Positions 9,399 to 30,901 of a DNA stretch of 30,901 bases are shown piece by piece. Under the pieces are notes generated by a model. The model saw only the letters and a list, made by a program, of their open reading frames with translations, searched no databases and was not told where the DNA came from. The stretch is from a virus (lineage: Duplodnaviria > Caudoviricetes), in IMG/VR virus record IMGVR_UViG_3300025012_000233, positions 1 to 30,901 of that record. One strand, written 5' to 3'. The translations under genes were made by a program, and so were the position numbers. Each line of letters begins with the position of its first letter. Position 1 is the stretch's first letter.

Positions 9399-9399
9399 C

Positions 9400-10206: not shown

Positions 10207-10219
10207 GGAGGAAGGTTAA

Positions 10220-11284: not shown

Positions 11285-11295
11285 GGAGGTTTAAA

Positions 11296-11697: not shown

Positions 11698-11710
11698 AGC
11701 GAGGTAGAAA

Positions 11711-12169: not shown

Positions 12170-12172
12170 TTT

Positions 12173-12187
12173 CGTGAAAATTTCACG
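12173..12187. promoter_or_regulatory. palindromic site CGTGAAAATTTCACG (copy 3 of 4; extends to 19 bp)
   Basis: Directly after the head genes, before the adaptor gene. Confidence 0.7.
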
Positions 12188-12220
12188 AATCTAACTTAAC
12201 CATCTTAACAAGGTCAGGAA

Positions 12221-12859: not shown

Positions 12860-14079
12860 TGGAGGATATCAAACTCGGTCCCTTCCTTGGGATGAATAAC
12901 ATAACTCCCGACCACGCAGTACCGAAGGGATTCGTCAGGAATATAGTCAATGCTGATGTTAAGGGCGGGAAGGTTTCACGGCGAGGCGGGGAAACGAAAG
13001 TATATTCTGCATTGAAACCGAAGGGAGGATTCTCCTGCCCTGCTGGAAGTTACTTTATAGAAAAAGGATACATAAAGAAATTCCTTGGAACAACAGCCTC
13101 GACAATATATACTGGAATAAACGGAACTGAATACGCTTGGAATTACCTGAATGGTGTAGTATATTTCAGCGATGGAATTGTAAGCCTGAAAATTGAAAAC
13201 GACATAGCTCGAAACTGGGGTATGCAGGTTCCAAGTTCTCCTGTAATCTATGGTGTAAGTGGAACCTACGGCGGAGGACAGTATCTCGCTGCAATCTGCT
13301 ATGTTGATGCGGATGGAGTTGAATCCGGTGCGTCTGAGATTGTTGTTGTAGATTTACCGGATAATACTGGGATTGTCTTTGCGAACCTTCCTACTCCAAT
13401 TGATCCGCAGGTTTCATACGTTCGCCTATATCTCTCCACCCCGAATGGGAGTGAGCTATACCACATCGCAGATCTAACCCCCGGAACTCTTGATTATACT
13501 ATAACCTCCGGACGGTATGATGGAGGTAACATACTCGAACATACTTTCGTATCCCCGGCGCCAGCTGGGCGTATTATCCGATTCCACAACGGTAGAGCTT
13601 TTGTAGCAGATTCTTACGGAAGAGTCTTTTACTCCGATCCTTTAGAGTTAGACCATTTCAGACGCGGAGCAAACTTCCTACAGTTCTCTGCCATCGTGGA
13701 TATAATGGAGCCTGTGAAAGGTGGGATATTCTTTGCATACTCCAACACAACTGAGTTCCATGCTGGAGATGTGGAGGAAGGTTTTAACATTAGTTCCAAA
13801 TTCTCCTACGGTGGTATCTTCGGAACTGGGAGTAACGTCCCCAACTCTGACAACGTATGCTGGCAATCCCAACGTGGGATGTGCATAGGTTCCCCAGGTG
13901 GCGAGGTTAAAAACATAGTAGAAGAAAACGTCGCACCAGATTCGGGAACTTCCGGTGCATCACTTATCAAAGAACAAAACGGTCTACGGCAGTTCATCGT
14001 CTGTATAAAACAGCCTACAGCGTCTCCGCTGGCGGCAAAAAGTTGGATAGATGCCGAAGTAGCACGGCGAGGAGCTTGA
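12859..14079 (+). CDS. tail structural protein, nozzle/stabilisation-like
   Basis: FLGMNN...VRNIVNADV N-terminus and HNGRAFVA..VFYSDP propeller-like segments; TGATG overlap. Confidence 0.7.
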   Translation: MEDIKLGPFLGMNNITPDHAVPKGFVRNIVNADVKGGKVSRRGGETKVYSALKPKGGFSCPAGSYFIEKGYIKKFLGTTASTIYTGINGTEYAWNYLNGVVYFSDGIVSLKIENDIARNWGMQVPSSPVIYGVSGTYGGGQYLAAICYVDADGVESGASEIVVVDLPDNTGIVFANLPTPIDPQVSYVRLYLSTPNGSELYHIADLTPGTLDYTITSGRYDGGNILEHTFVSPAPAGRIIRFHNGRAFVADSYGRVFYSDPLELDHFRRGANFLQFSAIVDIMEPVKGGIFFAYSNTTEFHAGDVEEGFNISSKFSYGGIFGTGSNVPNSDNVCWQSQRGMCIGSPGGEVKNIVEENVAPDSGTSGASLIKEQNGLRQFIVCIKQPTASPLAAKSWIDAEVARRGA

Positions 14080-14081
14080 GA

Positions 14082-14579
14082 ATGAAATTTAAGAAAACAG
14101 GGTTCATCTACACCATTGAGCATGTTGGGGTTGATGGCAGGACTAAGAGCATTGAGTACGTGGAAAATATCATCCACACTCTGGGCAGAAACTACATAAT
14201 TGGCGCAGCATTCAAAGGAGCTTCGCAATTCACGAACTGGTATCTCGGTGCCTACGGTGCAGCGAGGATTCCTCTTGCCGCTGATACAATGATCACACTC
14301 ATGGCTGACTGCGAGGAACTTACCAGTTACACAGGAGATACCAGACTGGCTCTTACTCTTTCTGCTGTAGCAGATGGGGAGATGGATACCGTCGCAGCTC
14401 CGAATATTTTTGAGTTTCCTGCCGGTGCTACAGTCAGAGGAATTTTCCTCACCACCAACCCAACCAAGGGGAATAATACCGGCCTACTCGTTTCTTCGAT
14501 CATTCTTCCTTCCCCGAAGGTAATTGATGCTGGAGAGAGTTTGAAGGTTCCGGCTGATTTTACCCTCAATACGTTATAA
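14082..14579 (+). CDS. tail-associated structural protein
   Basis: ENIIHTLGRNYI..WYLG and TVRGIFL patterns; AGGAG RBS at the 14082 start. Confidence 0.65.
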   Translation: MKFKKTGFIYTIEHVGVDGRTKSIEYVENIIHTLGRNYIIGAAFKGASQFTNWYLGAYGAARIPLAADTMITLMADCEELTSYTGDTRLALTLSAVADGEMDTVAAPNIFEFPAGATVRGIFLTTNPTKGNNTGLLVSSIILPSPKVIDAGESLKVPADFTLNTL

Positions 14580-14591
14580 GGAGTCAACGGA

Positions 14592-14978
14592 ATGGGCGCT
14601 TTTACAGTAGCAGAAGCAAATGCCGTACTTGATGCTAGGTTCGTTACTGGCACCACATATTACCTTGCGCTGCACACCGGAGATCCAGGTGAAGATGGGG
14701 ATGAGAATGAGGTTCTTGTCGCAGCGGATGCGGATTACGTTCGACAGGGATTCACCTTTGCCGGTCCTGCAGCCCTGAAACAAAAGCTGAACGATTCAGC
14801 AGTATCTTGGACTGTTGACGCTGCTTCTGCAGGATACACAGTTACGCATGCTAGTATCTGGACTGCTGCTACGGCAGGGTCGTGTAAGTTCAAAGCAGCT
14901 TTGGCGGTCCCGAGAGCCTTGGTCGCAAACGGAGTTTTAACCTTTGAAATTGGCGAAGTTGTTGCCGCTTTGGATTAA
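14592..14978 (+). CDS. tail fibre/baseplate-type small protein
   Basis: YYLALHTGDPG..NEV..YVRQ..VTHASIW motif common in phage tail proteins. Confidence 0.75.
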   Translation: MGAFTVAEANAVLDARFVTGTTYYLALHTGDPGEDGDENEVLVAADADYVRQGFTFAGPAALKQKLNDSAVSWTVDAASAGYTVTHASIWTAATAGSCKFKAALAVPRALVANGVLTFEIGEVVAALD

Positions 14979-14989
14979 GGAGTTGTGAA

Positions 14990-15448
14990 ATGAAGATAGC
15001 ATATTCTGTTCGTGATCTAATGGTGCTGGCCGCTGCAGAAGCAATCAACGGCAATGTGATTCGCTGCTATGGTTCTCCTACAAGCGAGGCGGCGGCTGAT
15101 GCACTTATCCCGGCTACCCCTGAAGCATCGATTGGTGCTGCTACTCTTTTGTGCATCATTTCAGCAGGCGGCGATGGTACTGGTGTGAATATGGCGACTG
15201 TTCCAGTGAACGGAGTTCTAGCGAAAGACCCCGCAGAATCATGGTGGGGAACGATGCTGGCGTCCGGGTATTTTTCTTTTTACCGGATATCAGCTACCGC
15301 AGATACTGGAGGAGCAAGTGATACCGAGCCAAGATTGCAAGGTACAATCGGAGTGATTGGCGCGGATTTCATCGTCAGTAACAGGTTCAAGTCAATTGGC
15401 GAAAAACAGGAAATGAACGCGTTCTACATCGGGGAGCCTGCTGAATAA
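14990..15448 (+). CDS. tail-associated structural protein
   Basis: IRCYG..PATP..TLL..GYFSFYR..RLQGTIG pattern; AAGGAG RBS. Confidence 0.65.
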   Translation: MKIAYSVRDLMVLAAAEAINGNVIRCYGSPTSEAAADALIPATPEASIGAATLLCIISAGGDGTGVNMATVPVNGVLAKDPAESWWGTMLASGYFSFYRISATADTGGASDTEPRLQGTIGVIGADFIVSNRFKSIGEKQEMNAFYIGEPAE

Positions 15449-16308
15449 TGGCATTCGTTTATTCGAGTACGAAGGAACTAGACAATAATACGTCTTCGCC
15501 CCTTGGATTGAACATCCTTGCTGATGGATCAAAGTTGTTCTATTGCGGGAAAAATTCATCCGGAAATCCTTCTGTCATTGAATGCGCCTTGTCAACGCCG
15601 TGGAACATTGCGTCCTTGACGATTACTGCAGCACTTGAGGTTTGGGCGAATGCCAATCCGCCTCAGGATATTATATTTTTCCCTGATGGATCTGGTTTTC
15701 TTGTGGCTGGGTATAATTCTGCTGATAAGTATGGATTGTCACTGTACGAAGCGACTACGCTTTTTTCAGTTGCCGGTGCGTCTTTTGTAGACAAGACCAC
15801 GCTTTCGAATACGCAGGAAATACGTTCAGTCGTGTTCAATGCGGATTTCAGTAAGATGTATTGCTGTAAATACAGCTCTATTGGTTATCCCGAAGCCATC
15901 GCGCAGTATAATCTTTCAGTACCTGGAATAATATCAACTGCCGTACAGGTTTCGGCCATAAATTATGATGTCTTCGACTATAACAGGGTGCTGTCCGGCA
16001 GGATTTCTGACGATGGAACTGCTTTTTATGTTTTGCTTGAGGGAACCGTAGGTATTAAAAAACTGACTCTTTCCACCCCGTGGGATCTGTCGAGTTATAC
16101 AGACGATGGATACGTATGGGATGATTTGGAAGGAGAAAATAGTCTGACCGAAAGCGCGATATTTTTAGATAGCGGAGCGGATAATTTATTTATTCTTGGC
16201 AACGATAACATTCTTGGCACAGCAGTAGCTCATTATATCGCCGGGGAAGAACCACCACCTGTAACAGAGTTTTGGCAGAACTTCCACGGACAGACGGAAA
16301 TATTATGA
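15448..16308 (+). CDS. beta-propeller protein with LSTPWD-type repeats, putative receptor-binding protein
   Basis: Repeats LSTPWNIAS / LSVPGIIST / LSTPWDLSS alternating with DGSKLF / DGSGFL / DFSKMY / DGTAFY. Confidence 0.7.
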   Translation: MAFVYSSTKELDNNTSSPLGLNILADGSKLFYCGKNSSGNPSVIECALSTPWNIASLTITAALEVWANANPPQDIIFFPDGSGFLVAGYNSADKYGLSLYEATTLFSVAGASFVDKTTLSNTQEIRSVVFNADFSKMYCCKYSSIGYPEAIAQYNLSVPGIISTAVQVSAINYDVFDYNRVLSGRISDDGTAFYVLLEGTVGIKKLTLSTPWDLSSYTDDGYVWDDLEGENSLTESAIFLDSGADNLFILGNDNILGTAVAHYIAGEEPPPVTEFWQNFHGQTEIL

Positions 16309-18116
16309 TAGTCTGCGACGGCGATAGAAGTCTCAAGCGCAAGTGGTTTGCGAGGAAAAAACTCGCCTCCATAATTGAGATGGATATTCCCGCTGCCGCT
16401 GTCAAATTCGATGGGTTCGTGATACGAGTCAGGCAGATTGACGGAGAGGGCGGGGGGAGAATAACCGCTCCTGTCGGTGCGATTGTTACCTGTTCCAACA
16501 GTGCAGGAATAAAGATTATGGTAGCCGATCACTGGCTTGGTGCTTTTGATCACGCGGCATATCTTCACACCGTCTATTATTTTGGTGGAGCCGGGGTGAA
16601 GGTTCAGAAACTCTTTAACGCCTCCAGCGAAGAAGAGATGGTCGAAGACGGTAATGAGATCATAAAATTCAAACCTGCCGTTTATCAATCCCCATATGGC
16701 ACTGTCGATGGAGAGATAACCGGGGAAACCGTATATGTCTCGGATTGGCCATGCCAGCCGGCAGTGTTGCCGTTCAAGAGCGCCGAGGCCATGTGGGTTG
16801 TGATGTCCGATCAGGTGTTCATCGACTTCAACGGCAATGGGATCGCCGACCGTCCGAAATACATCTCTGAATTTGTGCTGTCGTATTATGCAGGAGATTG
16901 CAGCAATCTCGGTGGGAGAATCGGAATAGACCTGCAGATCGAGAACCTTTATAATGCCCCTTGGCGATTCATTCAGCAGTTATCCAAAACCAGATTCACA
17001 TCGTTTTTCAACGGATCACCTGATACTTACGGGGGAAAGGTAGTGGTTGCCAGGGACTACTCGCTACCAGACGGCAGTCTAGCGCCGGTTGATGGCAGTA
17101 TCACTGGACTCACCGCCGGATACACACTGCTGGAAGAGATCATTCCGGCTGGAGTTTTGCCAAGCGGATTGCGTCCTCTGCTTCTTTCTTTCCCTGTAAT
17201 GTCCGGGCCGATGGGGATATTTGCTTTCGAGGAATCAGAGGTCAGAACAACCCTCTATGTAGTCGATGCTTCCGATACAGGAATGTATTGGGGCGGGACG
17301 CAATACCCTGAGTTGAGGGATTGGTTCTCGGCAAATCCGGACCATGAACACTGGAAGCTGTTTTTTGTATTCATGGTGGGGAATACTTCGCACCTGGTTC
17401 ACTCGGGGCAGTTTATTGGGCTGCTGGCTGATCTTGCAACGATAGATATCCTTGGGCCGCCCGTATCATACAGCAATGCAAGAAGAATGCTGGAACAATT
17501 GAGTTTTGTTCCTCCTGCCAATCATAATTTCAAGGTGCCTTACGACACGTTCATGTTCAGGTGCCACGATGGAAACATCTATACCTGGACTCGAAAGTAT
17601 GGTGCAGTGAAGTTCACCTCGACAGGACTGTTTGCAGCGGATCTTGTTGTTCCGGAAACTGCCGATGGAGTGCGGCCGGAGATAATCTACGCCGGGATGT
17701 TTGCCGACGAGCCCTTGTATTTGTGCGTCTGCAATGACATCGGTAATTCGATAACTACTGTCTACCACGGTTCACCTTTTCTCTCATGGGCTGCTTTGCC
17801 GCATACCAAAGACGGTGATACTCTCGTTTATTGCAGGCCTGTAAAGGTTTCTCCTTTGGAGATAATGTTGATCGGCGTAATAAAATCAGAGGATAAGTTT
17901 TATTTCGGAATGCTTAGATGGATTCCCGGATCAACCGGGCAATGGGTCAGGATGGGTCGACTTCCAGTAAACGGTGAAGAAAAAAACTCCTGGAATACTT
18001 GTCTTTATGGAAATGGTATTGAGGTGGATAATCTGGAATCGTTTCTGTCCCAGCCTCCTGTTTCTCCGCAGACTCCAGTCGGCCCTTACAACCTTTATGA
18101 AATAGGTATGCCATGA
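16305..18116 (+). CDS. large tail-region protein of unknown function
   Basis: ~603-aa ORF with ATGA overlaps at both ends. Confidence 0.75.
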   Translation: MIVCDGDRSLKRKWFARKKLASIIEMDIPAAAVKFDGFVIRVRQIDGEGGGRITAPVGAIVTCSNSAGIKIMVADHWLGAFDHAAYLHTVYYFGGAGVKVQKLFNASSEEEMVEDGNEIIKFKPAVYQSPYGTVDGEITGETVYVSDWPCQPAVLPFKSAEAMWVVMSDQVFIDFNGNGIADRPKYISEFVLSYYAGDCSNLGGRIGIDLQIENLYNAPWRFIQQLSKTRFTSFFNGSPDTYGGKVVVARDYSLPDGSLAPVDGSITGLTAGYTLLEEIIPAGVLPSGLRPLLLSFPVMSGPMGIFAFEESEVRTTLYVVDASDTGMYWGGTQYPELRDWFSANPDHEHWKLFFVFMVGNTSHLVHSGQFIGLLADLATIDILGPPVSYSNARRMLEQLSFVPPANHNFKVPYDTFMFRCHDGNIYTWTRKYGAVKFTSTGLFAADLVVPETADGVRPEIIYAGMFADEPLYLCVCNDIGNSITTVYHGSPFLSWAALPHTKDGDTLVYCRPVKVSPLEIMLIGVIKSEDKFYFGMLRWIPGSTGQWVRMGRLPVNGEEKNSWNTCLYGNGIEVDNLESFLSQPPVSPQTPVGPYNLYEIGMP

Positions 18117-18750: not shown

Positions 18751-19386
18751 ATGCCAGGCGCAGGAGATGATTTTACTCAAGACGGCGGATATGATCCTTC
18801 AAAACCGCCGCTTCTTCCTCCGATATCCTTGCCGAGTGGCACAACTCCGCCGTCGCCAACTACCGTTGTCGTAAATATTCCAGGATCAACTACGGAATAT
18901 TACCATAATGAGCAGACAAGCGATATTCAGATAAAAGAAATTCTGAATCTTGGCTGGAACACCTGGGCAAGAAGCATTGAGCCTATACCGGTTGGTGGAT
19001 ACATTGTCTGCACTCTCATGGATGGGGTAATGGGTGCGTGTATTGCCATAGGCAGGGAGGGCATGGAAGGACAGAGTATCTCTGCCTTCCAATATTCTCT
19101 GATCATCGACAGGACCGGGATTAAAGCTCATGAAAATGGTGTTGTGGTAGATGAAATCAGAGCGGAGCACAGCCTGTTATCGGAAGTGAAAATATACCGG
19201 CAAGCGGACAATTCGATTGTCTATGTCGTCACAACTGAAAAGGAAACTCTGGTTTATACAAGTAATCTTGAAAATTTATTTCCGCCATTTATCCCTTTGT
19301 ACGTTTACGGGTATCTCTATTCCAGCGGAGACAAAGTGTTATCGGCTGAATTTGCGAACGGAACAGTCCAATACGGGAGCGTGTAA
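18751..19386 (+). CDS. tail-region structural protein (Pro-rich N-terminus, beta-sandwich)
   Basis: AAGGAG RBS; LGWNTWARSI motif. Confidence 0.7.
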   Translation: MPGAGDDFTQDGGYDPSKPPLLPPISLPSGTTPPSPTTVVVNIPGSTTEYYHNEQTSDIQIKEILNLGWNTWARSIEPIPVGGYIVCTLMDGVMGACIAIGREGMEGQSISAFQYSLIIDRTGIKAHENGVVVDEIRAEHSLLSEVKIYRQADNSIVYVVTTEKETLVYTSNLENLFPPFIPLYVYGYLYSSGDKVLSAEFANGTVQYGSV

Positions 19387-20567
19387 TGCTTGGAACCGGG
19401 TACTTATTTATCAGGGATTATGCGGTACTCTTTGAAGGTGAGGGGTCGCTGCGTGTTGGGAAGAACATATCGCTTGGTTCAGTTTCTTTCAACGGGAAAG
19501 GGTATCTACTGACCAATCCTGAAATTGCTTATGTCAATGTTGACCTTCCTGCCCTTGGCGGCGCGGCTTATGAGGTAAACAACTCAGGGTATGGGTATTG
19601 CGGCGCCATGCTCCCCGGTCTGATCACGGAAGCATCTGGAGGGTTTTATGTACCTGCTGAGCCACAGGTAGCATTCAGCATTCTCCCTGCTCTAACCACC
19701 TACGCCACTGGCATCTCGGTCGGTATCGGAGAACATGACAGCGAATTTTCTCCGCTGCAAGGTAAGGCGTGGGAAAGTACTGACGGCGGAGAATTATCTG
19801 CCACCCTTCCTGCCTTAAAGTCAATAGGTAGTGTAGACTTCTCTCCCGGCGAAGTACAGTTCTTCAACAGGATGTCCCTCATCAACACGTATAGTCCGGT
19901 CCAGGAACATATTTTTCTATTCAACTCTGCCGGTGTATTCGTTGATTCGTACTCGGCCAGCCGGGAGATGATAGCGTGGATGATCAATTCCATGACTATC
20001 AGTGTTGAGTATACCGTAATCGGTAGTTTCATTGCTCAATTCAGTAATCCAATGGTCGCTAATTTTGAAGTATTCGCTGCTATTGATGGTACGCCAGCAC
20101 TTGATGATACAGCCAGAGTATGGGTTGTTGAGATGGGATCTGGAGCTAGTTGGCAGTATGATAATTATGGATTTAACTCCTTTCTTGAAAAGGATGGAGA
20201 ATATTTTGGAATTGCTGATGATGGGATTTATAAGCTGGAAGGAGCCGATGACGCCGGGGTGGATATAGATTCCTGTATTGAAATCGGGAAGTCGATGTAT
20301 GGTTCCTACTTTAGTAAAAAATCCAGAGGTATCTATATTGGCTGTTCTTCTGACGGAGATATTTTCATAAAAATAGACACGGATGGAGTTGAGAACATCT
20401 ACCAGATTCAAGAAACTAGCACAACCCTTGCAACACATAAGGTTCCTGTTTCCCAGCGTAAGCTAGGAACATACTGGAACTTAACCCTTGTTAACTCCGA
20501 AGGTAGTGACTTTGATGTCTCTGACATTACCTTTATACTCTATACTATTTCAAGAAGGATTAAGTAA
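19386..20567 (+). CDS. tail structural protein with LPAL repeats and nozzle-like C-terminus
   Basis: Repeated LPAL/LPGL; QYDNYGFNSF...DGIYKLEG segment; TAATG overlaps. Confidence 0.7.
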   Translation: MLGTGYLFIRDYAVLFEGEGSLRVGKNISLGSVSFNGKGYLLTNPEIAYVNVDLPALGGAAYEVNNSGYGYCGAMLPGLITEASGGFYVPAEPQVAFSILPALTTYATGISVGIGEHDSEFSPLQGKAWESTDGGELSATLPALKSIGSVDFSPGEVQFFNRMSLINTYSPVQEHIFLFNSAGVFVDSYSASREMIAWMINSMTISVEYTVIGSFIAQFSNPMVANFEVFAAIDGTPALDDTARVWVVEMGSGASWQYDNYGFNSFLEKDGEYFGIADDGIYKLEGADDAGVDIDSCIEIGKSMYGSYFSKKSRGIYIGCSSDGDIFIKIDTDGVENIYQIQETSTTLATHKVPVSQRKLGTYWNLTLVNSEGSDFDVSDITFILYTISRRIK

Positions 20568-21532
20568 TGTCGAGTGAAGCGTATATAGAAAATATAATTT
20601 CCAACGCTATTGCTACTGCGACTAATAGTACTGAGCAAGCGCAGGATGCAGCGGATTCTTTAATCAATGAGTCGATAGGGTTTTACATAGCTCCCCCATC
20701 GACCACTACTGGATTCCAGGTAACAGCAACGGAACCTGATATCCCTGACGCTGCTGATTCCACTCTAACGTATGAAGCACAGTTGGAGAAATTAATCGCA
20801 CTCCTTTCGAATCAGCTTGCAAACTTCTTCACTACATATTACCCTTTATCTAACGATGCGTTTGACGAGGCTACGACTTGGCTGGTTAATACGATAACAA
20901 ATGGCGGGACAGGGATAAATGCGAATATAGAGGATCAAGCCTGGCAGAGGGATAGGGATAGAAGAACTGCAGAGGGAAGGAAGCTGAAAGCAGGAGTTGC
21001 AGTGGGGTATGCCGCGAAAGGGCATTTTATCGTCGCCGGTTCCATGCTGAAGAAGATGGAAGAGATTGATTTTGTAAATGCTGCGAATAACGGAATAGGT
21101 TCTACAAATAAGGCTGTTGAGCAACTGAAGATTGAAATCGAAACTGTACGGTTCGCGGTTGGGAAAGCTATAGATTCCAGAAACATGGCGATGAATGCAG
21201 CAGCGGATTATGTACGAGCTATAGCTTCCGCTCCTGACGCAGCTGCGAGAGTTGCCTCTTTGAATACAGATGTTAAGGCGAAGATGATGAGTGCTGCGGC
21301 GGATTTCTATAGGGTCCGGCTTGAGAGAGATAACTTAGTTCTTAAATCCAGTCTTGCAAATATGGACTCAACTGTCGATGTGTATAAGCACAGGCGGACC
21401 ATAGCGGTACAGGCGGATAATGTGAAGATCCAAGCTCTCGCCTCCGCTGCAGATGTGTTTGCGAGAACTGCTTCTGCAGCGCTTTCGTCCTTGAATAGTA
21501 TTGTTTCTTCTGCTGTTAACTCTTTCGCGTAA
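20567..21532 (+). CDS. Ala-rich helical virion protein, probable internal/ejection protein
   Basis: 321 aa, helical composition, precedes the large internal protein. Confidence 0.6.
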   Translation: MSSEAYIENIISNAIATATNSTEQAQDAADSLINESIGFYIAPPSTTTGFQVTATEPDIPDAADSTLTYEAQLEKLIALLSNQLANFFTTYYPLSNDAFDEATTWLVNTITNGGTGINANIEDQAWQRDRDRRTAEGRKLKAGVAVGYAAKGHFIVAGSMLKKMEEIDFVNAANNGIGSTNKAVEQLKIEIETVRFAVGKAIDSRNMAMNAAADYVRAIASAPDAAARVASLNTDVKAKMMSAAADFYRVRLERDNLVLKSSLANMDSTVDVYKHRRTIAVQADNVKIQALASAADVFARTASAALSSLNSIVSSAVNSFA

Positions 21533-21542
21533 GGTGGATGAT

Positions 21543-22343
21543 ATGGCTAATGAGTTTTTGGATAAGGTTAAGAGTAGATATAAAGAGTTCATGGCTCCAG
21601 AAGTCAAGATGGCAAAGACACTGGTAAGTGGATTAGCTGTGCCGCAAATTGCAGCTGCAAAAGGTGCAACAGCTATATATGGTGCAGCATATGGTAAGTT
21701 GAAACAGCAGAAGAAACAAGGACCTGCTGGAATGCCGAGTCATGGAGGATTCCCTGATAGGAATTGGATAAAGCTGGAAGGTACAGGGGAAAAGGTTGGG
21801 ATAGGAGCTGATGGGAATATTGTTAAGGTGGACAAGGATGGGAATAGGATCTCTAATATAAAAGGGAAGCTTACCAAAGATCCTAATCCTACAATGGAAA
21901 CTTCAAGTGGACTGTCTGTAAAGTTCGGGAATGGAGTATCCCCGGAAGCTAAGGCGAATTTCATGCGTGACCCCTCACAGCCGCCGCAAGGTACTGACCT
22001 TGGACCGAACAGAACTTTTCTGACGCAGGTAGCGCAGCGGAATAGTGGTGGGAGTAGTTCTGCCTCGGCTTTGAATACCTTCACAGATGTGATGCGGGAG
22101 AAAGCGAGGTTGTTCAGAGAGAAGCAAGGCGCAGATATAGCGAATGAAACCGCGAAAACCTCCTACTACAACAACTACCTTTCCTCACAAACTGAGAACA
22201 TGAATCAAGAAACATCCGCTATCCCTCTCCGTAAACGTATGGCGGAGCTACGTTACCTCGCTACACTTGGTGGATTGACCGCACCCTCCGAAGACGCCGG
22301 GAAAGATCCCGCTGATCTTATCGACGAAGAACTTAACAAATAA
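21543..22343 (+). CDS. putative internal virion/ejection protein
   Basis: ORF 21501..22343; the ATG at 21543 has an AAGGTGG RBS. Confidence 0.55.
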   Translation: MANEFLDKVKSRYKEFMAPEVKMAKTLVSGLAVPQIAAAKGATAIYGAAYGKLKQQKKQGPAGMPSHGGFPDRNWIKLEGTGEKVGIGADGNIVKVDKDGNRISNIKGKLTKDPNPTMETSSGLSVKFGNGVSPEAKANFMRDPSQPPQGTDLGPNRTFLTQVAQRNSGGSSSASALNTFTDVMREKARLFREKQGADIANETAKTSYYNNYLSSQTENMNQETSAIPLRKRMAELRYLATLGGLTAPSEDAGKDPADLIDEELNK

Positions 22344-22351
22344 GGAAACAC

Positions 22352-25300
22352 ATGGGTACTGAATCTGATTTCAATTCCGACCTTGCGTTTTTCGAGAACC
22401 TTAGGGTTGCTAGGGAGAAGGAAGCTAAGGCTGCGCAGAAGCTGAACACGGCGCGGGATACGTATCTGAATGATACGGAGAAGATGTCGCGGGATATAGC
22501 TGTGCGAACGAAGGACTTGCTCCCGGAAAAAGTTAAGGTAGCAAAGGCTCCAATTGGTGGGAGCATAGGACATAGGGAGGTTGATGCCTCCTTCTCCGAA
22601 GAGAATCCTTTAGCTGGTATCGGGTCGCAGGTCTCGGATGTACTGAGTAAGCTGAAGGGAAAGAAACTAAAGGGAGATATCAAAGGGGAAGGGCTGACAG
22701 ACTTGGTGTATCAAAAGGTTCTGCAGAAACGACTCCCAGCAGCATACCAGTATAAATTAAAACAAGATACTTCAATCCTCGGAGATGAGACAGGGAATCT
22801 TCCTGGGTATGATAAGTTCAGAGAAAAGTTCGACGCGGAAAATCAGCCGGATGTAAGTAGGTATTACAAAGGCTTGACCCCGAAAGGGATAGCTACGAAC
22901 CTGGGAATAGCGGCGGCAGGTAATCTTGCGATAGAAGGAGTTGGTAGAGCTGGTGCAGGGTTAGGGATGAAGGGTCTGGCAAAGCTGGCTGGGAGGGGTT
23001 TGTTCGGACTCCCGACTCCAGGCGCTGGAAAGTTTGTCACGAAAGCAGCCGGACTCGCATTAATGACAGCTGCTGACTTCGCCGTGTTTGATGCTGCAAG
23101 TGAAGTGGTTGGGCAGAGTAAGTGGGCGAAGGCGAGGGAAGATGAGCCGCTGAAAGTCCTGGGTGCGGAAATGGTTGCTGGACTTGGCGCGGGAGTTGTC
23201 GCGTCCAAGGTCGTGAAGGGTGGTTCGAAGGCGATGATGTCTGCTGTGAAGACATATGGGCTGGAGAAAGCGAGGAATGAAGCAGCTGCGGAAGTGCTCG
23301 GGAAGACTGGGACTGTTAGTTCCTTGATGGAGTGGAATAAATCGCTGAAGAGATTGGAGAGGAGTAAAGCTGTATCGGTCGGAGAAGTGGATAACTTTAT
23401 TCAACTGAATAAGAAGGAGGTTGGGAGACTTACTCTGGAAGACGCAGTGTCGAAATATAACCCTGACATCCCAGGCGGACACAGCGTCTTCAGTAAGGAA
23501 GGTATCTCCCGTATGGCAGAGACGGAAAGGTCTCGGAAAGCAGCAGAGGCTATATCCTCATTCGAGAAAGAGGCAGGGTACTCCCCGGAAGTTCCAGGTT
23601 CCGCGTTCATTCCGAAGCAACTTCCTGCACCTGGAACACAGCGTGTAGCTGTGGAGGTTGTGGAAGGTCTCCCAACGAAGGAACCTTTGCTTATAACCGA
23701 TGTCCAAGAACGCGCGCTTACCATCCGTAAATCCGCTGGCACCCCGCAGGAAGTTGCAGAGAATAGCTGGATGGGGGAATATTCTGTTACAATCCATGAT
23801 CCAAAGTTCCATGCACATACTCCAATGCTTGAAGGAACGGGGGCTAGACTCGCACTCCCCGCACCGGTGGAGAATATTGTAGCGGATCAGCTGCCCTTAC
23901 GGGCGAGGGTTGCGATACGTACTGCGTATGAACAGAATAGGAATCTGAGGAAAGCGACGATTATTCTGGGAGAGAAAGGACCTCCGGATTTGTCTCCGGA
24001 TTCACTGACAAAGATCACGGAGTTCTTCACGCATCATATAAATGCTACGAAGGTTCCGGAGACTTTGCTCGGTCCTGATCCAGTTCTTGTAAATGTGCTG
24101 AAGGAGATTAATCTTGGGTTGGCGAAGAGTGGGAATAAAGCCCCGGCAACTTTAACTGACAACGTATGGGGATACGGACTCGATAAAGTCCCCTTCACGC
24201 AGAAGCTTCGGATGCTGGATAACGCTGCGGTGGAGGAGGTTAAGGCTGCTGCGGAAAGTGGGATTCCTTCCTCCTTAGCCGTGCCGGAGGCTGCGAAGAA
24301 GAGCGCTGCGAGGAAGGTACGGAAGAATGCTGCGGCGGAGGTTAAGAGGGATGCGGAGGTTGTAGCGGCTACGAAGAAGGGTGTTGTAACTCGGAAGAAG
24401 ACTACGGAAGTTATTACATTAAAGGCTGCTGAAACTCCGGTCAGTGAAGGGATCGCTGCTACGGATGTAAGTAACCTGATGAAGAAGGGTGCGGAGAAGA
24501 GTACGATCACGAATCTGGAAGTAGGTGCTGTTACAGGTAGGACTTTAACTCCAGAGCAAATAGCGAAGTTTAAAGCAGCGAAAGAGAAACAAAAACGTGG
24601 AGCTTTAAGCCGTGTCCTTGCATCAAAGGAAGAAAAAATGGCTGCTGATGCAGCTTTAATGGACGCCTCCGCGGCAGATCCGGAGATAGGATCTTACATA
24701 AAGAAAGCTCTAGTCACAGTCCCGCTCTCCGCTGTCGCCCTCGTAGGAATGGATGCGAGTGATGCTGATGCAAGTGTGCTTGGAAGTGTATCCGCGTTAG
24801 GGGTTGATCTTGCAAAGAAAGCTGTTGGGGATAGTGCGAGTAAGCTTATTTCAGTATTAAAGAATAGCTCCCTTGTCGGGGAAAAGGGCAGGATTCTGGG
24901 AAGGGTGGAAAAGTGGATGGATGGGATTTCAGTTAAACCCACCATGGATGTACTGGAAAAGACAACCTCGAAGATCCCTGCGTTTTTCAGGAATACTGTA
25001 ATGACCCCGGCCGCTGTTGCTGGTAGGTTTTACAAAGCAGAAGCTAATCCACTTGTGGAGCTGGCTACCCGTATGACTGCGATGCACAACAACATTAAGA
25101 TGCATTCGCAGGCAGTGAAAGAAATCCTTGCTATGGTTCCGGAGTATAAGAACTCTACTGAGAAAGTCCGGCAAGCTATGAAGCCATTGGTGGAGAAATA
25201 TGAAGTCCCACTGGCGGAAGCTGGATATCATGAGGGTATGATTGCGAGACTTGGGGATGATCTGAAGAAAACGAATAAGGCGAAAGATCCGGAGGTGTAT

Positions 25301-27061
25301 GCGGAACTGTCGAAGTCGCTGAAAGAACATCATGCGAAGCTGAATGGATTAAAAGCGGATACTGCAGGGTATGAAGCGGAGTGGACGAAGCTGGCGCAAG
25401 GGACTGCGAAGGAGCATTCAAGTGCGAGGATCGCACTGGCACTGGAGGATACAGCAGAGTTTATCCATTACCCCTGGTTGAAAGGGATGATGACTCCGAA
25501 TGAACTGTCAGCAGTTTCTATGCTGAAGGATTTGAATAAGGTCACAGAAACACGGATAATTGAAGCTGGCGGGAAGGTTATTAAAGATAGACCTTACGCA
25601 CACCATGCACTGCACCCGGACTCGAATACTGTGAAATTGCGGGAAGCGTTTGCGGGGTTGACTCCGAATGTGGAGAATGCTGTTAATCTCGCGCGGCTGA
25701 ACAGTAGGAATGTTGGGTCGAAAATGCTCATGCCGGATGTAGAGTATATGTACGCGAAGTATGTTCCGGATGTAGAGAGAAGAATCCAAGGTATGGAGTT
25801 CTGGAAGAAGGGACAAGAAGGCGGCTGGCACGCGCATGTTAAGGAACTCCGGAAGAATGGAGTTATGACGAAGGAACTGGATGAGCTATGGACAGGGATT
25901 AATAAGTCCCTGGAACCAGTAGCACATTCTGGAATGGCGCAGTGGGCGAATAGATATTACTCGATGGAGGTATTGTGGAGGTTGTTTGCGTCACCGTCTG
26001 TTGGGTTTAAGCATCTGATGAAGCAGACAGGAAACCTTGCTATCTTCCCACCTGACGTATGGGCAAAGGCGGTGGTGAAAACTCCGGGGGTCATGGCCAG
26101 GGCAAAGGTTATGGAGCTGCAGGAACGCTGGCCGAAGGTATTCGGTGGGATTAAGCTGAAGCAGAATGACGCAGTGGATCTTGTCCGGGCTATGACGAAT
26201 CAGGGGAAGTATAATAGCTCTATTGCGGAGCTGGATATGTTTGATACTCCACTGAATCGGTTTGATAAGATTCTGGGGAAGGTGAATGAGACAGGGTCTT
26301 TTATCGTCGGGGCTGTAGAATCCTTTGATAGAACAGCTACTGTCCTGATGGGAATGGAGATGGCTGCGAAGAAAGGCATGACCCCAAGCCAAGCAGCTTT
26401 CGCGGTGTATGATTCTATACTGAAAGCGAACTTCCTATCAGGGGTACATAATCCGAGTTGGGTTAGAGATCCTTACGCGCGGGCTTTCTTTATGTTCCAA
26501 GGTACTCCGTTTAAGCTGATGGAGCAAAGGTTGCTGCTGGCGGCGAAGGGAGGGAAGGCGATTGTGAAGGCGGGCGGGGTTACGCTGGAACAGTTGAAGG
26601 AATTGAAGCATTTTATTAAGGAAGGGGAGTATAGAGTAAAGCATGGGATGATCTTGGATGCACTCAATTCGGAGAAGGATATCTTCGGGCAGAGTTCTGC
26701 GAAACAGTTCGCAGTTAGTACATTAATGATAGGTGGATTAATTGGAATCGGGGATAAGATGTTTGACTCCAATATTCAAGACCAGGTATTCCACCCGCCG
26801 TTTATTAAGATGGAAGGGGAATCCCCTGGAGTGTATCTTAACCCAGTAACCAGCGCGGCGTATAAAACCTGGACAAAGCGGCATGAAGAGGATAGGGGTC
26901 TTCTGTTTACTGAGTTTGTAAATAACTGGCTTGGACATTCAGGTGCAGTTCCTTCTACATTTAGGAAGGCTATGAGGTTGACAGAGAATGATATACCTGA
27001 GATATACAGGAACTCAAAGCTACGATATTTCTTCGGTGTACCTGCGGCAAAGGGTGAATGA
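22352..27061 (+). CDS. large (1569 aa) internal virion / DNA-ejection protein
   Basis: Ala/Lys/Gly-rich, helical, hydrophobic Gly-Ala stretches; position typical of podovirus ejection proteins; no catalytic motif recognised. Confidence 0.65.
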   Translation: MGTESDFNSDLAFFENLRVAREKEAKAAQKLNTARDTYLNDTEKMSRDIAVRTKDLLPEKVKVAKAPIGGSIGHREVDASFSEENPLAGIGSQVSDVLSKLKGKKLKGDIKGEGLTDLVYQKVLQKRLPAAYQYKLKQDTSILGDETGNLPGYDKFREKFDAENQPDVSRYYKGLTPKGIATNLGIAAAGNLAIEGVGRAGAGLGMKGLAKLAGRGLFGLPTPGAGKFVTKAAGLALMTAADFAVFDAASEVVGQSKWAKAREDEPLKVLGAEMVAGLGAGVVASKVVKGGSKAMMSAVKTYGLEKARNEAAAEVLGKTGTVSSLMEWNKSLKRLERSKAVSVGEVDNFIQLNKKEVGRLTLEDAVSKYNPDIPGGHSVFSKEGISRMAETERSRKAAEAISSFEKEAGYSPEVPGSAFIPKQLPAPGTQRVAVEVVEGLPTKEPLLITDVQERALTIRKSAGTPQEVAENSWMGEYSVTIHDPKFHAHTPMLEGTGARLALPAPVENIVADQLPLRARVAIRTAYEQNRNLRKATIILGEKGPPDLSPDSLTKITEFFTHHINATKVPETLLGPDPVLVNVLKEINLGLAKSGNKAPATLTDNVWGYGLDKVPFTQKLRMLDNAAVEEVKAAAESGIPSSLAVPEAAKKSAARKVRKNAAAEVKRDAEVVAATKKGVVTRKKTTEVITLKAAETPVSEGIAATDVSNLMKKGAEKSTITNLEVGAVTGRTLTPEQIAKFKAAKEKQKRGALSRVLASKEEKMAADAALMDASAADPEIGSYIKKALVTVPLSAVALVGMDASDADASVLGSVSALGVDLAKKAVGDSASKLISVLKNSSLVGEKGRILGRVEKWMDGISVKPTMDVLEKTTSKIPAFFRNTVMTPAAVAGRFYKAEANPLVELATRMTAMHNNIKMHSQAVKEILAMVPEYKNSTEKVRQAMKPLVEKYEVPLAEAGYHEGMIARLGDDLKKTNKAKDPEVYAELSKSLKEHHAKLNGLKADTAGYEAEWTKLAQGTAKEHSSARIALALEDTAEFIHYPWLKGMMTPNELSAVSMLKDLNKVTETRIIEAGGKVIKDRPYAHHALHPDSNTVKLREAFAGLTPNVENAVNLARLNSRNVGSKMLMPDVEYMYAKYVPDVERRIQGMEFWKKGQEGGWHAHVKELRKNGVMTKELDELWTGINKSLEPVAHSGMAQWANRYYSMEVLWRLFASPSVGFKHLMKQTGNLAIFPPDVWAKAVVKTPGVMARAKVMELQERWPKVFGGIKLKQNDAVDLVRAMTNQGKYNSSIAELDMFDTPLNRFDKILGKVNETGSFIVGAVESFDRTATVLMGMEMAAKKGMTPSQAAFAVYDSILKANFLSGVHNPSWVRDPYARAFFMFQGTPFKLMEQRLLLAAKGGKAIVKAGGVTLEQLKELKHFIKEGEYRVKHGMILDALNSEKDIFGQSSAKQFAVSTLMIGGLIGIGDKMFDSNIQDQVFHPPFIKMEGESPGVYLNPVTSAAYKTWTKRHEEDRGLLFTEFVNNWLGHSGAVPSTFRKAMRLTENDIPEIYRNSKLRYFFGVPAAKGE

Positions 27062-27070
27062 AGTTGGGAT

Positions 27071-27085
27071 CGTGAAATTTTCACG
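27071..27085. promoter_or_regulatory. palindromic site CGTGAAATTTTCACG (copy 4 of 4)
   Basis: Intergenic, between the large protein gene and the tail spike module. Confidence 0.7.
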
Positions 27086-27110
27086 GATTTAACTGGGAAC
27101 GGGTGATAGA

Positions 27111-27368
27111 ATGAGTGATAAAACGAAGATGGTTGTAGATGGGAATAAGAATGTGGTACAGGTGTTTACTCCGAGAAGGGTAGAATCTGTGGAAGCAGAT
27201 ACGGCGTGGACGCCGCTGAAGAAAGATATTGCGTATGCTGTATCTGCGGATTGTACAGTTAAGATTTCAGGTGGAACTGCTACAGCTCTTCTGCAGGGAA
27301 CAATTCGCGGGATTGTGGAGGGAGCGACATACACCTTTTCTGCCACGCAGACGATTGAGGTTATGTGA
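27111..27368 (+). CDS. small beta-rich virion protein, possible fibre adaptor
   Basis: 85 aa, coupled to the tail spike gene. Confidence 0.65.
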   Translation: MSDKTKMVVDGNKNVVQVFTPRRVESVEADTAWTPLKKDIAYAVSADCTVKISGGTATALLQGTIRGIVEGATYTFSATQTIEVM

Positions 27369-29353
27369 TGGAACTGGGATTAATGCAGAATGGAGGGATG
27401 GGAAAGAATGGAGGATTGGTACTGCCTAGGGATGGGTTGGTTGGTTGCTGGTTGGAAAAAAATGGGATGATTGATAGTATCGGCATATCGGGCAGAGCGG
27501 TAAAGCCGAAGTATCATCTCCTTGGCGACAACACCGGCTATCTCTCTGGCACCGTTGCGGCAGATGTAACCGTTGTCTCAAAGGAGGGCACTGCCGCCGT
27601 AACTATCCCCTCCGCAAATCGTATAAATGTTGGCGTCGGAACCCTGTGGAGCCTGCTATTGAGCAATGGGAGTCGCTATGAACTACCCACGATGACCAGT
27701 GCCACAACCGCCGTGATGTATGATGTAAGCGGCAACGGCAGACACCTCACCCTCACAGGCTACACTCTTGCAACGGCGGTTGTCGAGTCGCTGACTACTG
27801 GCTCGGATTGGCTAAACCAAATCGGCTGGACGATGCACCAGAACTCGCTCTATCCGTCTCTTGATCTGTCGGCATGGGCCAAGGGAGCGGTTGTAAATAC
27901 GCTCACTCACTCCGCTGGCGTCACCACGGCAACGTTTATCGCAGGGACCGGCACCGCCAGGATTCGCCCGAGTTCTACCGCAACAACTATAGGGCTATAC
28001 TCTGGATATGCAAAATTTCGAGCGACAAATCACCGATATGTAGGTGTACGGCTTTTTTGCATCAACCCCTACATCGGGACTGCACCTTATCTTGTTGTTG
28101 ATACTGTTTGGAAAAAGGTAGTTTTTGCAGTTGCCACAGCGTCAAATGTTGCCATCTCCTGGGACGATGACAACTGGTTCACCCTCGTTTACACCTATGA
28201 CAACCTCACGGATTCCGCCAAATATTTTCAAATCGGCCTGACAGACTATCTCGGAAACGAGTCGATCGCCGCAACAGGAAACGAGACCCTTGAGGTTGCT
28301 GGCGCTGGGTGGGTCAAGGACGATTGGATTCATTTTTACCCTGCGGTTTCTGCCGCGATCAATGCGACAGTGCCTGCAACTGCAAACGGTGTTTCCGCGC
28401 TTGACGGCAGCAGTGCAAACACGAACGCATGGAGCATTAAAACCCTGTCGAAAGATATCTCCTCTTGGGGCGATTCCCATACCATGGGCAACCGGTGGGA
28501 TCTTGGAATTTACCCGCGCCTGCTGGCGTTTAATACCCCTGGCCGAACTGTTTTTAATGGCGGTTATGGCGGGCAGGGCGGTGAATATATCCTCTCACAA
28601 ATGGCACTTTATCCTGAAAAATATGGAGATATCTCTGTTTTATGGTTGTGCAATAACGATATTCAGGATTCTGGTGACGCCGCGATCATACAGGACAATA
28701 TCTTGTTTTTTATTGAGTCGGCAGTTGAATGGGTAGTCGGCGCTGGCGGGCAGTATGTCGTCTTAACGCTGGTACCCAACAACGTCCGCATAATTGGCAC
28801 GTTTGGCGGTGATCTCATAACGTCTGTAAATAACGCGATCATCGCCACCTACCCCAATAACCACATCGACATTCGCACCGAGCTACAGGCGTATGGTGAC
28901 GGGTCCGCTGATGACCTGGCTGATATCGCAAACGGCCTAGTCCCCCGCTCTCTTCGTTTGGCCTACGACAACGTCCACCATAACCACAAAGGTAATTCGA
29001 TTGTAGCTGGGATCGTGTGGGATTTTATCAACACGAACCTCTCTCCGCTTGGGCTGCAAAAGGATTATGTCGGTGGAGCAGGCAGGGTCAAATACTCGCT
29101 GCTAGGCGTAGATGGTGCCTACTATTGGCCATCTGCTCCCGACATCATCGCCGTGACCGGAGTGGACAATGCAGTTTATAACGCTGACGGCAGCGGAAAA
29201 ACGTTCACCACTCAGGCACTCGCCCTGGCCGCCCTCGCATCACTGGCAGACGACGAATATCTATTTGGCGGGATAAAAGCCGCGGTGCTTTACCTAGTCT
29301 CGATGCTCGCAAAAGCGGCAGCGATAAAGCGTGCCGTCGGTGATGCTGCGTGA
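27368..29353 (+). CDS. tail spike/fibre with SGNH/GDSL esterase domain
   Basis: Blocks WGDSHTMG, GYGGQ, LCNND and DNVHHN, preceded by a carbohydrate-binding-like beta domain. Confidence 0.85.
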   Translation: MELGLMQNGGMGKNGGLVLPRDGLVGCWLEKNGMIDSIGISGRAVKPKYHLLGDNTGYLSGTVAADVTVVSKEGTAAVTIPSANRINVGVGTLWSLLLSNGSRYELPTMTSATTAVMYDVSGNGRHLTLTGYTLATAVVESLTTGSDWLNQIGWTMHQNSLYPSLDLSAWAKGAVVNTLTHSAGVTTATFIAGTGTARIRPSSTATTIGLYSGYAKFRATNHRYVGVRLFCINPYIGTAPYLVVDTVWKKVVFAVATASNVAISWDDDNWFTLVYTYDNLTDSAKYFQIGLTDYLGNESIAATGNETLEVAGAGWVKDDWIHFYPAVSAAINATVPATANGVSALDGSSANTNAWSIKTLSKDISSWGDSHTMGNRWDLGIYPRLLAFNTPGRTVFNGGYGGQGGEYILSQMALYPEKYGDISVLWLCNNDIQDSGDAAIIQDNILFFIESAVEWVVGAGGQYVVLTLVPNNVRIIGTFGGDLITSVNNAIIATYPNNHIDIRTELQAYGDGSADDLADIANGLVPRSLRLAYDNVHHNHKGNSIVAGIVWDFINTNLSPLGLQKDYVGGAGRVKYSLLGVDGAYYWPSAPDIIAVTGVDNAVYNADGSGKTFTTQALALAALASLADDEYLFGGIKAAVLYLVSMLAKAAAIKRAVGDAA

Positions 29354-29436: not shown

Positions 29437-29489
29437 CTGATAAGAAACTATTATCAATCATTTAACATTAAACTATACGGAGGTTTAAA

Positions 29490-30023
29490 ATGTGGAAAAG
29501 TCTTTTACTTAGCTGTATCTTTGTTATACTCTTAGCCGGATGCGGGGATAGTGGAATTATGAACATCACAAAACTTCCTGTGTCAGATGAAACAGTGCTG
29601 GGAATTGCCGGGAATGTGAAGGACGCGAGTGTGCAGAAGGAGATAGTGGTGCATCAGACGCTGCAGAAAAGAGATGCAATGTATGCGAAGATGTATAAAG
29701 AATCTGGATTCTCTGTGGAGTTTGAACTGGTGGAGGTATCTCCAGGGATGAAGGTGCAAGTTATGAAGAAGGTGCAGTTTAGAGAAGCGCCGAAGTTTGA
29801 TTCGCATCTACCAACCGCTCCTTCAGAGCATCCAATGTGGGGAGTGTTGAAGAGTACGATAAAGGATGCGAAGGAAGGATTTATGTTTTATACTGGGATT
29901 CAGGCGTTGGATAGTATTCTCGGGAAGAGCTTAGATTCTGCTCAGCCGAAGTATTATGGAGATTATAATCCACAGACAGCTGCACCATATGTTGTTTATC
30001 CTGAAATCGTGACAGTCCCATGA
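29490..30023 (+). CDS. lipoprotein, possibly spanin-like
   Basis: Signal peptide with lipobox LLAGC; GGAGG RBS; begins the lysis-type cluster. Confidence 0.75.
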   Translation: MWKSLLLSCIFVILLAGCGDSGIMNITKLPVSDETVLGIAGNVKDASVQKEIVVHQTLQKRDAMYAKMYKESGFSVEFELVEVSPGMKVQVMKKVQFREAPKFDSHLPTAPSEHPMWGVLKSTIKDAKEGFMFYTGIQALDSILGKSLDSAQPKYYGDYNPQTAAPYVVYPEIVTVP

Positions 30024-30109
30024 AACCCTTAGTTATAACCTTGACAGTTAAGATAGAGACTGTTAAGGTTATCTTGAAGAGATTATTACAGAGGCTTAGG
30101 ATTATATGA
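30020..30109 (+). CDS. 29-aa basic amphipathic peptide (MKPLVITLTVKIETVKVILKRLLQRLRII)
   Basis: ATGA overlaps at both ends bridge the lipoprotein and PLA2-like genes exactly. Confidence 0.55.
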   Translation: MKPLVITLTVKIETVKVILKRLLQRLRII

Positions 30110-30387
30110 AAGACTACTGCTCACTAAGTCCAGATAATCCATTCGGATATGACATCTCTTTCTGATGAGCGCTGCATGACGAAGGGTATGAGAGACAGGA
30201 TCGGGATAGGTTGGAAGTGGATCTTGATTTTAAACTCTGACTCGAACGTGCAAGCAATCAGGAGATTGCTAAGGTGTATTATGATTTTGTAAGGTTGTTT
30301 GGGGAGGTTTGGTGGATTCGTGTAAGGATGATTAAATGGTATAGGGAAAGGAGGAAGAAAGATGGAAAAGCTGGTTTTGTTTTTTAG
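30106..30387 (+). CDS. phospholipase A2-like protein with three in-frame UGA codons at Cys positions (putative selenoprotein, 93 aa)
   Basis: MKDYCSLSPDNPFGYDISF-U-U-ALHDEGY...RLEVDLDFKL-U-LERASNQEIAKVYYDFVRLFGEVWW...; TGA at 30163, 30166 and 30238; ends at TAG 30385-30387. Confidence 0.85.
30253..30270 (+). promoter_or_regulatory. bacterial SECIS-like hairpin AGCAAUC-AGGA-GAUUGCU
   Basis: Perfect 7-bp stem starting 12 nt after UGA 30238-30240; loop 19 nt from the UGA with G at loop position 2. Confidence 0.65.
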
Positions 30388-30613
30388 AGTTATGAAGGCG
30401 GGGGAAGAGGTGGCGGACCCGACGAAGTGGAAGAATGTACAGGCGATGGCTATTGCGTTGCTGATGATTTTGAAGGGAGTGCTTGGGTATGTGTTCCCGG
30501 ACTTGAAGATTGAGGATCAGTTTTATCAGTACCTCGCTGATGGAATTTCATACCTGCTTGGGGCGGTGGCAGTGTATCTCACATATGCAACCTCGAAGAG
30601 GGCTGGGGTGTAG
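30362..30613 (+). CDS. holin-like protein with two transmembrane segments
   Basis: 83 aa, two hydrophobic helices, VADPTKWK and ATSKRAG motifs, AAGGAGG RBS. Confidence 0.7.
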   Translation: MEKLVLFFRVMKAGEEVADPTKWKNVQAMAIALLMILKGVLGYVFPDLKIEDQFYQYLADGISYLLGAVAVYLTYATSKRAGV

Positions 30614-30615
30614 GG

Positions 30616-30900
30616 ATGGAGATACGGAACACGCGGAGGTATCTGACAGATGAAGACGCGGAGGCAATTGCTACGGCGTTCGCGAAACAGCAGCAACATG
30701 CCTGCAGGTTCCATGATATTGATAGAGATAGGATGATGGGAGCGATAACTACCTCGGAACATATTGAAGCAGTGACGAAGGAGATAGGTAGTGCTGTACG
30801 GGTTACGCTGGTGAAGGGAGGATTATGGGCGGTAGGGGTGTTGCTGTTTGTGGGGTTGATGGTGAAGTTGAGGGAGTGGTTGAAGCTTCCGATACCTTGA
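30616..30900 (+). CDS. single-TM membrane protein, lysis-cassette associated
   Basis: 94 aa; LTDEDAEAIA..CRF soluble part and a C-terminal hydrophobic helix. Confidence 0.65.
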   Translation: MEIRNTRRYLTDEDAEAIATAFAKQQQHACRFHDIDRDRMMGAITTSEHIEAVTKEIGSAVRVTLVKGGLWAVGVLLFVGLMVKLREWLKLPIP

Positions 30901-30901
30901 A

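Follow-up and report, generated by a model that had tools for sequence, protein, structure and literature searches.

A concealed phospholipase A2-like gene of a tailed phage, with three in-frame UGA codons at cysteine positions, as a probable host-decoded selenoprotein

Near the end of a 30,901-nt stretch of viral DNA (hereafter, the window) lies a gene for a small phospholipase A2 (PLA2)-like protein that is interrupted, at positions where its relatives carry Cys, by three in-frame TGA codons, two of them adjacent. The window belongs to a tailed phage, in which a terminase, a P22-like portal and a major capsid protein are recognised. That the three UGA codons are read as selenocysteine (Sec) is, in our assessment, very likely; that the gene is, as a whole, a phage selenoprotein decoded by the host, with a single SECIS element likely serving all three codons, is probable. 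The Sec reading had been put forward in a preliminary description of this DNA, and the Cys columns in the family, the retention of TGA in related phages, the selection acting on the gene and the PLA2-like fold all support it. The features concerned are collected in Table 1.

Table 1. Features of the PLA2-like gene and its surroundings (positions in the window)
Feature	Position	Strand	Remarks
PLA2-like gene, 93 codons	30106..30387	+	codons 20, 21 and 45 are in-frame TGA; final TAG
Tandem UGA20-UGA21	30163..30168 (30163-65, 30166-68)	+	CC position before catalytic His24-Asp25
UGA45	30238..30240	+	Cys column in a helix; probably bonded to residue 20
Predicted long hairpin, 80 nt	30173..30252	+	from 4 nt past UGA21 to the SECIS base; UGA45 in its 3' strand
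SECIS-like hairpin	30253..30270	+	stem of 7 bp; purine loop of 4 nt (30260-63), its first two positions G
Lipoprotein-like gene	29490..30023	+	hydrophobic N-terminus, lipobox-like LAGC; no Pfam/PHROG match
29-aa basic amphipathic peptide	30020..30109	+	translationally coupled upstream; charge +6, hydrophobic moment 1.91
Small membrane protein	30362..30613	+	holin-like by size and place only; hydropathy; no Pfam/PHROG match
94-aa protein	30616..30900	+	C-terminal transmembrane stretch; last gene of the strand

Translation of the window agrees with the frame proposed earlier, with its three TGA codons and its TAG end. The gene occupies the gap between the 29-residue peptide and the small membrane protein, and its ATG shares bases with the TGA that ends the peptide gene, as expected of the ATGA coupling that had been suggested. 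A change of the genetic code throughout the phage had been discounted, and codon counts over 32 hand-picked ORFs of the window are those of the standard code: TGG is used 124 times and TGC or TGT 72 times, TGA terminates 12 of the 32, and in-frame TGA occurs three times in total, always within the PLA2-like gene. UGA as a genome-wide sense codon was thus not found in these ORFs. Assembly error was checked over positions 29900-30700 in Logan contigs from four runs of four different studies; all four lack an alternative letter at the three codons, two of the runs being possibly the source of the window itself and the other two contributing single contigs at depths of 2.5 and 3.8. By a rough count, the probability that three nonsense changes, each a random substitution of one base, would strike Cys codons alone is about 6e-4; more weight belongs to the conservation seen in divergent relatives. 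The hidden gene is a real, conserved and intact late gene of the phage.

The read-through protein matches the Pfam family of prokaryotic PLA2s, PF09056, with an E-value of 1.4e-6 and 29.3 bits, just below the cut-off of 29.4, and phrog_6098, a phage family of unknown function, over its full length (E 4.9e-14). An exhaustive search gave 89 protein relatives, in which Cys5, His24, Asp25 and Tyr28 are present without exception and Asp39 in all except one; the His-Asp dyad, the Tyr and the second Asp are all intact in the window protein. A profile of 98 sequences matches the solved microbial PLA2s 7ygk, 8k1w, 4aup and 1faz at E-values of about 1e-12, and no NCBIfam family is common to the 98 aligned members. 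The PLA2 fold expected from the motifs is recovered by an AlphaFold model, made with TGA read as Cys, which has three helices and a pLDDT of 92.9; the top Foldseek matches of this model are the same solved PLA2s, with a probability of 1.00, TM-scores of 0.56-0.60 and weak E-values (0.018-0.03). We therefore regard the protein as a predicted enzyme, a minimal phospholipase A2 of the prokaryotic type. The likeness to the microbial secreted enzymes (PF09056; 1faz, 7ygk, 8k1w, 4aup) extends to the D-x-C..PD and C-x-x-H-D-x-x-Y motifs, the helical Asp, the YY..VR.FG motif and the all-helical fold. Unlike them, the phage protein is shorter and without a signal peptide, carries UGA at three Cys columns and lies in a likely lysis cassette; the CC pair and the Cys45 column replace the region of the second microbial disulfide. 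It has neither a signal peptide nor a membrane span (the highest 19-residue hydropathy is 0.48), so that it presumably folds in the cytoplasm, and its C-terminal helix is basic and amphipathic.

In the 89 relatives, Cys occupies columns 20, 21 and 45 in 73, 88 and 66 sequences, respectively, as anticipated if the three UGA codons stand at Cys positions. The earlier proposal of a bond between residues 20 and 45 is strengthened by their co-occurrence: both Cys are present in 66 relatives and neither in 16, with mixed cases numbering four and zero (p 5e-14). Their being present or absent together fits such a bond. The other proposed pairing, between residues 5 and 21, agrees with the near-invariance of both columns and with the alignment to the solved microbial PLA2s. 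In the product, then, a Sec20-Sec45 and a Cys5-Sec21 bond would be expected from these sequence comparisons. Many relatives are all-Cys, and Sec is hence not required by the family.

Relatives that carry TGA were sought by scanning viral, metagenome and genome contigs for degenerate DNA patterns, and these succeeded where a word-indexed protein search and a back-translation scan with the read-through protein returned no relatives. The first pattern gave one true homologue among 31 loci. A total of 330 pattern sites were scored, of which 216 distinct ones passed 18 bits; about 16 of 54 metagenome loci were chance matches. At 30 bits, 35 distinct TGA-bearing sequences were retained, including that of the window itself (locus L166) and hence 34 others, in line with the expectation that related phages keep TGA at these columns. 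Statistics were computed at 55 bits (84-85 all-Cys genes, 15 with TGA at column 45 only and 18 with TGA at column 20 or 21, a truncated gene, L181, being left out), and a quick tree was built at 60 bits from 109 rows and 75 columns with the three TGA/Cys columns masked. With U standing for TGA and C for Cys at columns 20, 21 and 45, the 35 sequences fall into the classes CC-U (16), UC-U (8), UU-U (6), CU-U (4) and CU-C (1), so that TGA occupies column 20 in 14 of them, column 21 in 11 and column 45 in 34; these counts are shaped by patterns that favoured TGA at the three columns and by a metagenome scan that required it at column 45. Some of the 35 are near-copies, and the 19 that were aligned share 24-60% identity with the window protein. 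In the viral scans that allowed either Cys or TGA at each column, TGA was found in 16 of 82 genes, and nine of the ten genes with TGA at column 20 or 21 carried it at column 45 as well.

All 59 TGA codons of the TGA-bearing set are confined to the three Cys columns, and no TAA, TAG or off-column TGA occurs in its 2,098 core codons, an absence that the search patterns did not favour. Selection downstream of the TGA codons, another expectation of the preliminary description, is evident in nine close pairs: dN/dS is 0.14 for codons 5-19, 0.10 for codons 22-44 and 0.30 for codons 46-69. The last value is raised because dS falls to 0.30 in this segment, which lies over the SECIS region, as expected of a constrained RNA. 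Sister genes exchange TGA and TGY at columns 20 and 21 (L206 CC and L167 UU; L069 CC and L056 UC; L035 UC and L043 UU), and in the pair L037 (UC) and L157 (CU) the quick tree places a swap of TGA between the two positions. The confinement of TGA to Cys columns, the lack of other stops, the low dN/dS and the TGA/TGY exchanges together exclude a pseudogene and point to a Cys-like residue. In databases, phrog_6098 is represented only by Cys forms or by products cut at UGA. Three database proteins of 43-46 residues (P0005, P0049 and P0059) stop just short of column 45, and the 44-residue P0005 is the L064 gene cut at its UGA45; gene callers evidently truncate such genes.

The chromosomal relatives that were read are of the Cys form. 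No TGA-at-Cys form occurs among the matches listed by the genome-contig scan over 55 of 64 parts, nor among the matches read from 401 Desulfobacterota-group and 301 Nitrospirota-group genomes, where Cys forms only were seen. Chromosomal all-Cys relatives that end in a WGFG or WGYG motif and often bear a signal sequence (L342-L359, L376-L390) are present, distant matches counted, in 43 of the 401 and 35 of the 301 sampled genomes. Three stop-bearing genome matches were examined as recoded forms and turned out to have a terminal stop or a Trp nonsense codon instead; the latter, in the chromosomal relative G656, is a nonsense change at a Trp and not a Cys codon.

A bacterial SECIS consists of a short stem capped by a G-led loop, which lies inside the ORF and 16-37 nt past the UGA (PMC13188914; PMC10778597). 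After UGA45 the window has such a hairpin, of -10.4 kcal/mol, whose loop lies 19 nt downstream of the codon and which fits the bSECIS model (16-37 nt) of PMC13188914; no Rfam family matched within the window. A hairpin that fits the model follows 29 of 33 UGA45 codons, compared with 27 of 85 Cys45 codons, a loose test in that about 30% of the Cys45 forms pass. The stem is also supported by covariation: among 21 distinct aligned genes, six of its seven pairs show two-sided changes and 79% of the cells are paired, and the covariation score, which is inflated by kinship, was reached by none of 500 shuffles and by no slid register. Synonymous divergence, as noted above, is lowered over codons 46-69. 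The hairpin after UGA45 argues for decoding by the SelB protein of the host.

The situation differs at the tandem codons. UGA20 and UGA21 sit 94 and 91 nt from the SECIS loop, and a local bSECIS at 16-37 nt after either is absent in the window. A hairpin that fits the model follows two of 14 UGA20 and four of 11 UGA21 codons, with a background of 17/104 and 18/107 for the corresponding Cys codons, and a local hairpin excess after codon 21 was found in no class of genes (mean z about 0.1). Instead, the segment between the tandem codons and the SECIS is predicted to fold into a long hairpin, which in the window has a z of -2.7 and is matched by none of 60 synonymous redraws. Across genes this structure starts 4-9 nt past codon 21 and ends at the foot of the SECIS. 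A long helix, defined by at least four expected pairs, is predicted in 16 of the 18 UGA20/21 genes, three of 15 UGA45-only genes and 14 of 84 all-Cys genes. When synonymous codons were redrawn with protein and SECIS held fixed, two or fewer of 60 redraws reached the helix of the natural gene in 15 of the 18 UGA20/21 genes as against two of the 15 UGA45-only genes. Both exceptions among the UGA20/21 genes, L056 and L167, possess a local model-fitting hairpin of their own, which their CC sisters L069 and L206 do not. A local model-fitting hairpin is likewise found in the one CU-C gene, L044 (1854-2099, minus strand; see also L071), which is a distant member of the clade with TGA at column 21 only; this TGA is probably an independent origin of Sec in the family.

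In 15 of the 16 long-helix genes the predicted fold places the SECIS 0-4 nt beyond the base of the helix. With the helix taken as zero length, the distance from UGA21 to the loop becomes 10-18 nt (11 in the window), often below the 16-nt minimum of the model. The register of the helix slides by up to one codon between genes: a fixed register of eight pairs is only 62% paired, a slide of +2 scores nearly as well on covariation, and RNAalifold gives no consensus structure over the 16 long-helix sequences. Fifteen of the 16 form one clade, and L116, on a separate branch, represents a second origin; the helix is kept in the CC-U gene L203 and lost in L064, a CC-U member of the clade, and a test of helix against UGA20/21 by independent pairs had three pairs and no power. 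The long helix is thus a well-supported prediction that rests on about two lineages and has no fixed register.

We propose that SelB and tRNA-Sec of the host would read the three UGA codons as Sec. With the ribosome at UGA20 or UGA21, codons ~23-49 would form the long hairpin, looping out ~75 nt and placing the SECIS near the site expected of a local one; after melting the helix, the ribosome would meet the same SECIS at the usual distance from UGA45. By established selenium chemistry, bonds involving selenium resist reduction, and here they may hold better than disulfides in the cytoplasm, where the protein presumably folds. At lysis, the enzyme would attack membrane lipid through its basic amphipathic C-terminal helix, and three inefficient recoding steps may also limit its amount. 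The broader proposition, that this family of phage lysis PLA2s are true selenoproteins with up to three Sec residues, including a Sec-Sec pair, in structural bonds that enable cytoplasmic folding, and that a natural mRNA hairpin docks one SECIS beside several UGA codons in turn, is one towards which we incline with some reserve.

The identity of the inserted residue is where the main rival lies. A host tRNA-Cys with a UCA anticodon, as in the selC*/SelB* systems of some Desulfobacterales, might read the UGA codons as Cys, possibly with the help of the same hairpins. Suppression of UGA with Cys by tRNAs of this kind is reported (PMC5389517), the runs that match the window come from groundwater and sediment, and sister phages exchange TGA and TGY freely, as if the residues were equivalent. 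Yet in that study all selC*-bearing genomes have a full Sec apparatus, so Sec would compete at the SECIS (PMC5389517); moreover, a stop codon and an RNA signal kept for Cys alone would have no clear gain over TGY, and 12 of the 32 window ORFs end in TGA as an ordinary stop. We consider this explanation unlikely, and the SECIS-like and long hairpins, both missed by the preliminary description, favour Sec over plain Cys suppression. All three residues might also be Sec with no long helix involved, UGA20 and UGA21 being read through weak local signals or by SelB acting on the downstream SECIS without a fixed fold. The want of a column-wise consensus helix in RNAalifold, the few independent origins of the helix and a short hairpin that forms across the His-Asp-x-x-Tyr codons in some genes are in keeping with this. 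It fits less well with the lack of a local hairpin excess after codon 21 and with a helix that beats synonymous redraws gene by gene, is lost in L064 and recurs on the separate branch of L116, and we judge it rather unlikely.

Two further explanations would leave no place for Sec. The gene might be dead, or deliberately silenced so that UGA terminates and yields a short peptide or traces of leaky readthrough; that three consecutive recodings would be inefficient speaks for this. Against it stand the dN/dS of 0.10-0.30 downstream, the 2,098 codons with no TAA, TAG or off-column TGA, and the covarying hairpin, and when a real nonsense change did arise, in G656, it struck a Trp codon; we hold this to be very improbable. 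Alternatively, UGA might stand for Trp, Gly or Cys throughout the genes of the phage or its host, or the TGA codons might be errors of assembly. The genome in the nearest bin, G001, measures 0.5 Mb, as is typical of certain groups that include lineages with a recoded UGA. The idea is contradicted by the 32 ORFs, with 124 TGG codons and no other in-frame TGA, by the TGA stops in ATGA overlaps and by the agreement of all four runs, and we give it hardly any credence. Host-decoded Sec remains the reading that we prefer.

No tRNA-Sec was found in five related phage records, and a search of the window and of 16 loci gave no tRNA with a UCA anticodon, so that decoding would fall to the host. G001 holds positions 105-16452 and 19160-27477 of the window, on phage-only contigs; it has no selB above the cut-off and lacks the region of the PLA2-like gene, and for these reasons it is probably a binning neighbour. 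As to the host, no close prophage or spacer was found in the 401 Desulfobacterota-group and 301 Nitrospirota-group genomes sampled.

As in bacterial genes decoded through SelB and a SECIS, UGA occupies a conserved Cys column, coding conservation extends on both sides of it, and an in-ORF stem follows, here 19 nt after UGA45. Unlike those genes, this is a phage gene, and UGA20 and UGA21 stand far from the loop and mostly without a local element. Su, Li and Gladyshev reportedly showed in 2005 that, in an engineered E. coli construct, a distant SECIS in the 3'-UTR, brought close to the UGA by pairing, allowed insertion of Sec; the phage arrangement, in contrast, would be natural, in-ORF and based on one SECIS reused for three codons. 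In the parts available, the viral selenoproteins named in six sources are poxviral (PMC8310308; PMC2398784; PMC9402790; PMC10778597; PMC2792357; bioRxiv 10.64898/2026.09.15.751765), and one of these states that viral sequences are absent or very rare in its data for some other families, which include selenoproteins (PMC9402790). The selenoproteins of molluscum contagiosum and fowlpox viruses are captured host antioxidant glutathione peroxidases with a eukaryotic SECIS and one Sec (PMC8310308). The phage gene resembles them in being virus-encoded and relying on Sec decoding by the host, and differs in belonging to a phage hydrolase family in which Sec would be structural. A catalogue of 2026 lists 119 families of prokaryotic selenoproteins, a few with two or three Sec; its available part includes no phospholipase and no UU motif, and neither phage nor virus appears there as a word (PMC13188914). 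A phage selenoprotein or Sec-containing PLA2 was not found in the openly accessible articles searched.

If the phage protein is indeed a selenoprotein, the output of a lysis gene would be tied to the selenium status of the host, and gene callers would overlook the gene. A natural fold in which one SECIS serves several UGA codons, an arrangement that the standard bacterial model does not foresee, would, if confirmed, loosen the rule that a bacterial SECIS directly follows its codon; SECIS-based predictors would then miss multi-Sec genes, and proteins with several Sec residues could be built on a compact and directly testable design.

The neighbours of the gene suggest that it may act in membrane breakdown at lysis. 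Beyond the window, the locus contains an endolysin-family gene on the opposite strand, and endolysin-family genes lie near all six TGA-bearing loci whose candidate was scanned; similar small membrane proteins and varied endolysins accompany the relatives (about 11 of 17 loci). The 29-residue peptide resembles in character the outer-membrane-disrupting peptides of phages. Peptides like it occur near relatives (L056, L053), and in L170 (3941-4324), L196, L208 and L177 such a segment forms a C-terminal extension of the PLA2-like protein itself. The cassette as a whole (29480-30901) is absent from G001 and differs from the remainder of the late strand in its strong GC skew, which is 0.4 in the last kilobase; possibly the module was exchanged.

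Elsewhere in the window, an AT-rich non-coding stretch separates two gene blocks at 2063-2499, a place that G001 assembles differently. It contains a T-run of ~37 nt (2249-2286) flanked by a 19-nt inverted repeat, and tandem repeats of 9 nt to either side of the run form a 116-nt imperfect inverted repeat; the stretch is possibly an origin or a genome end. Inside the terminase gene, ~90-100 nt at 6749-6854 are absent from G001, probably an assembly difference.
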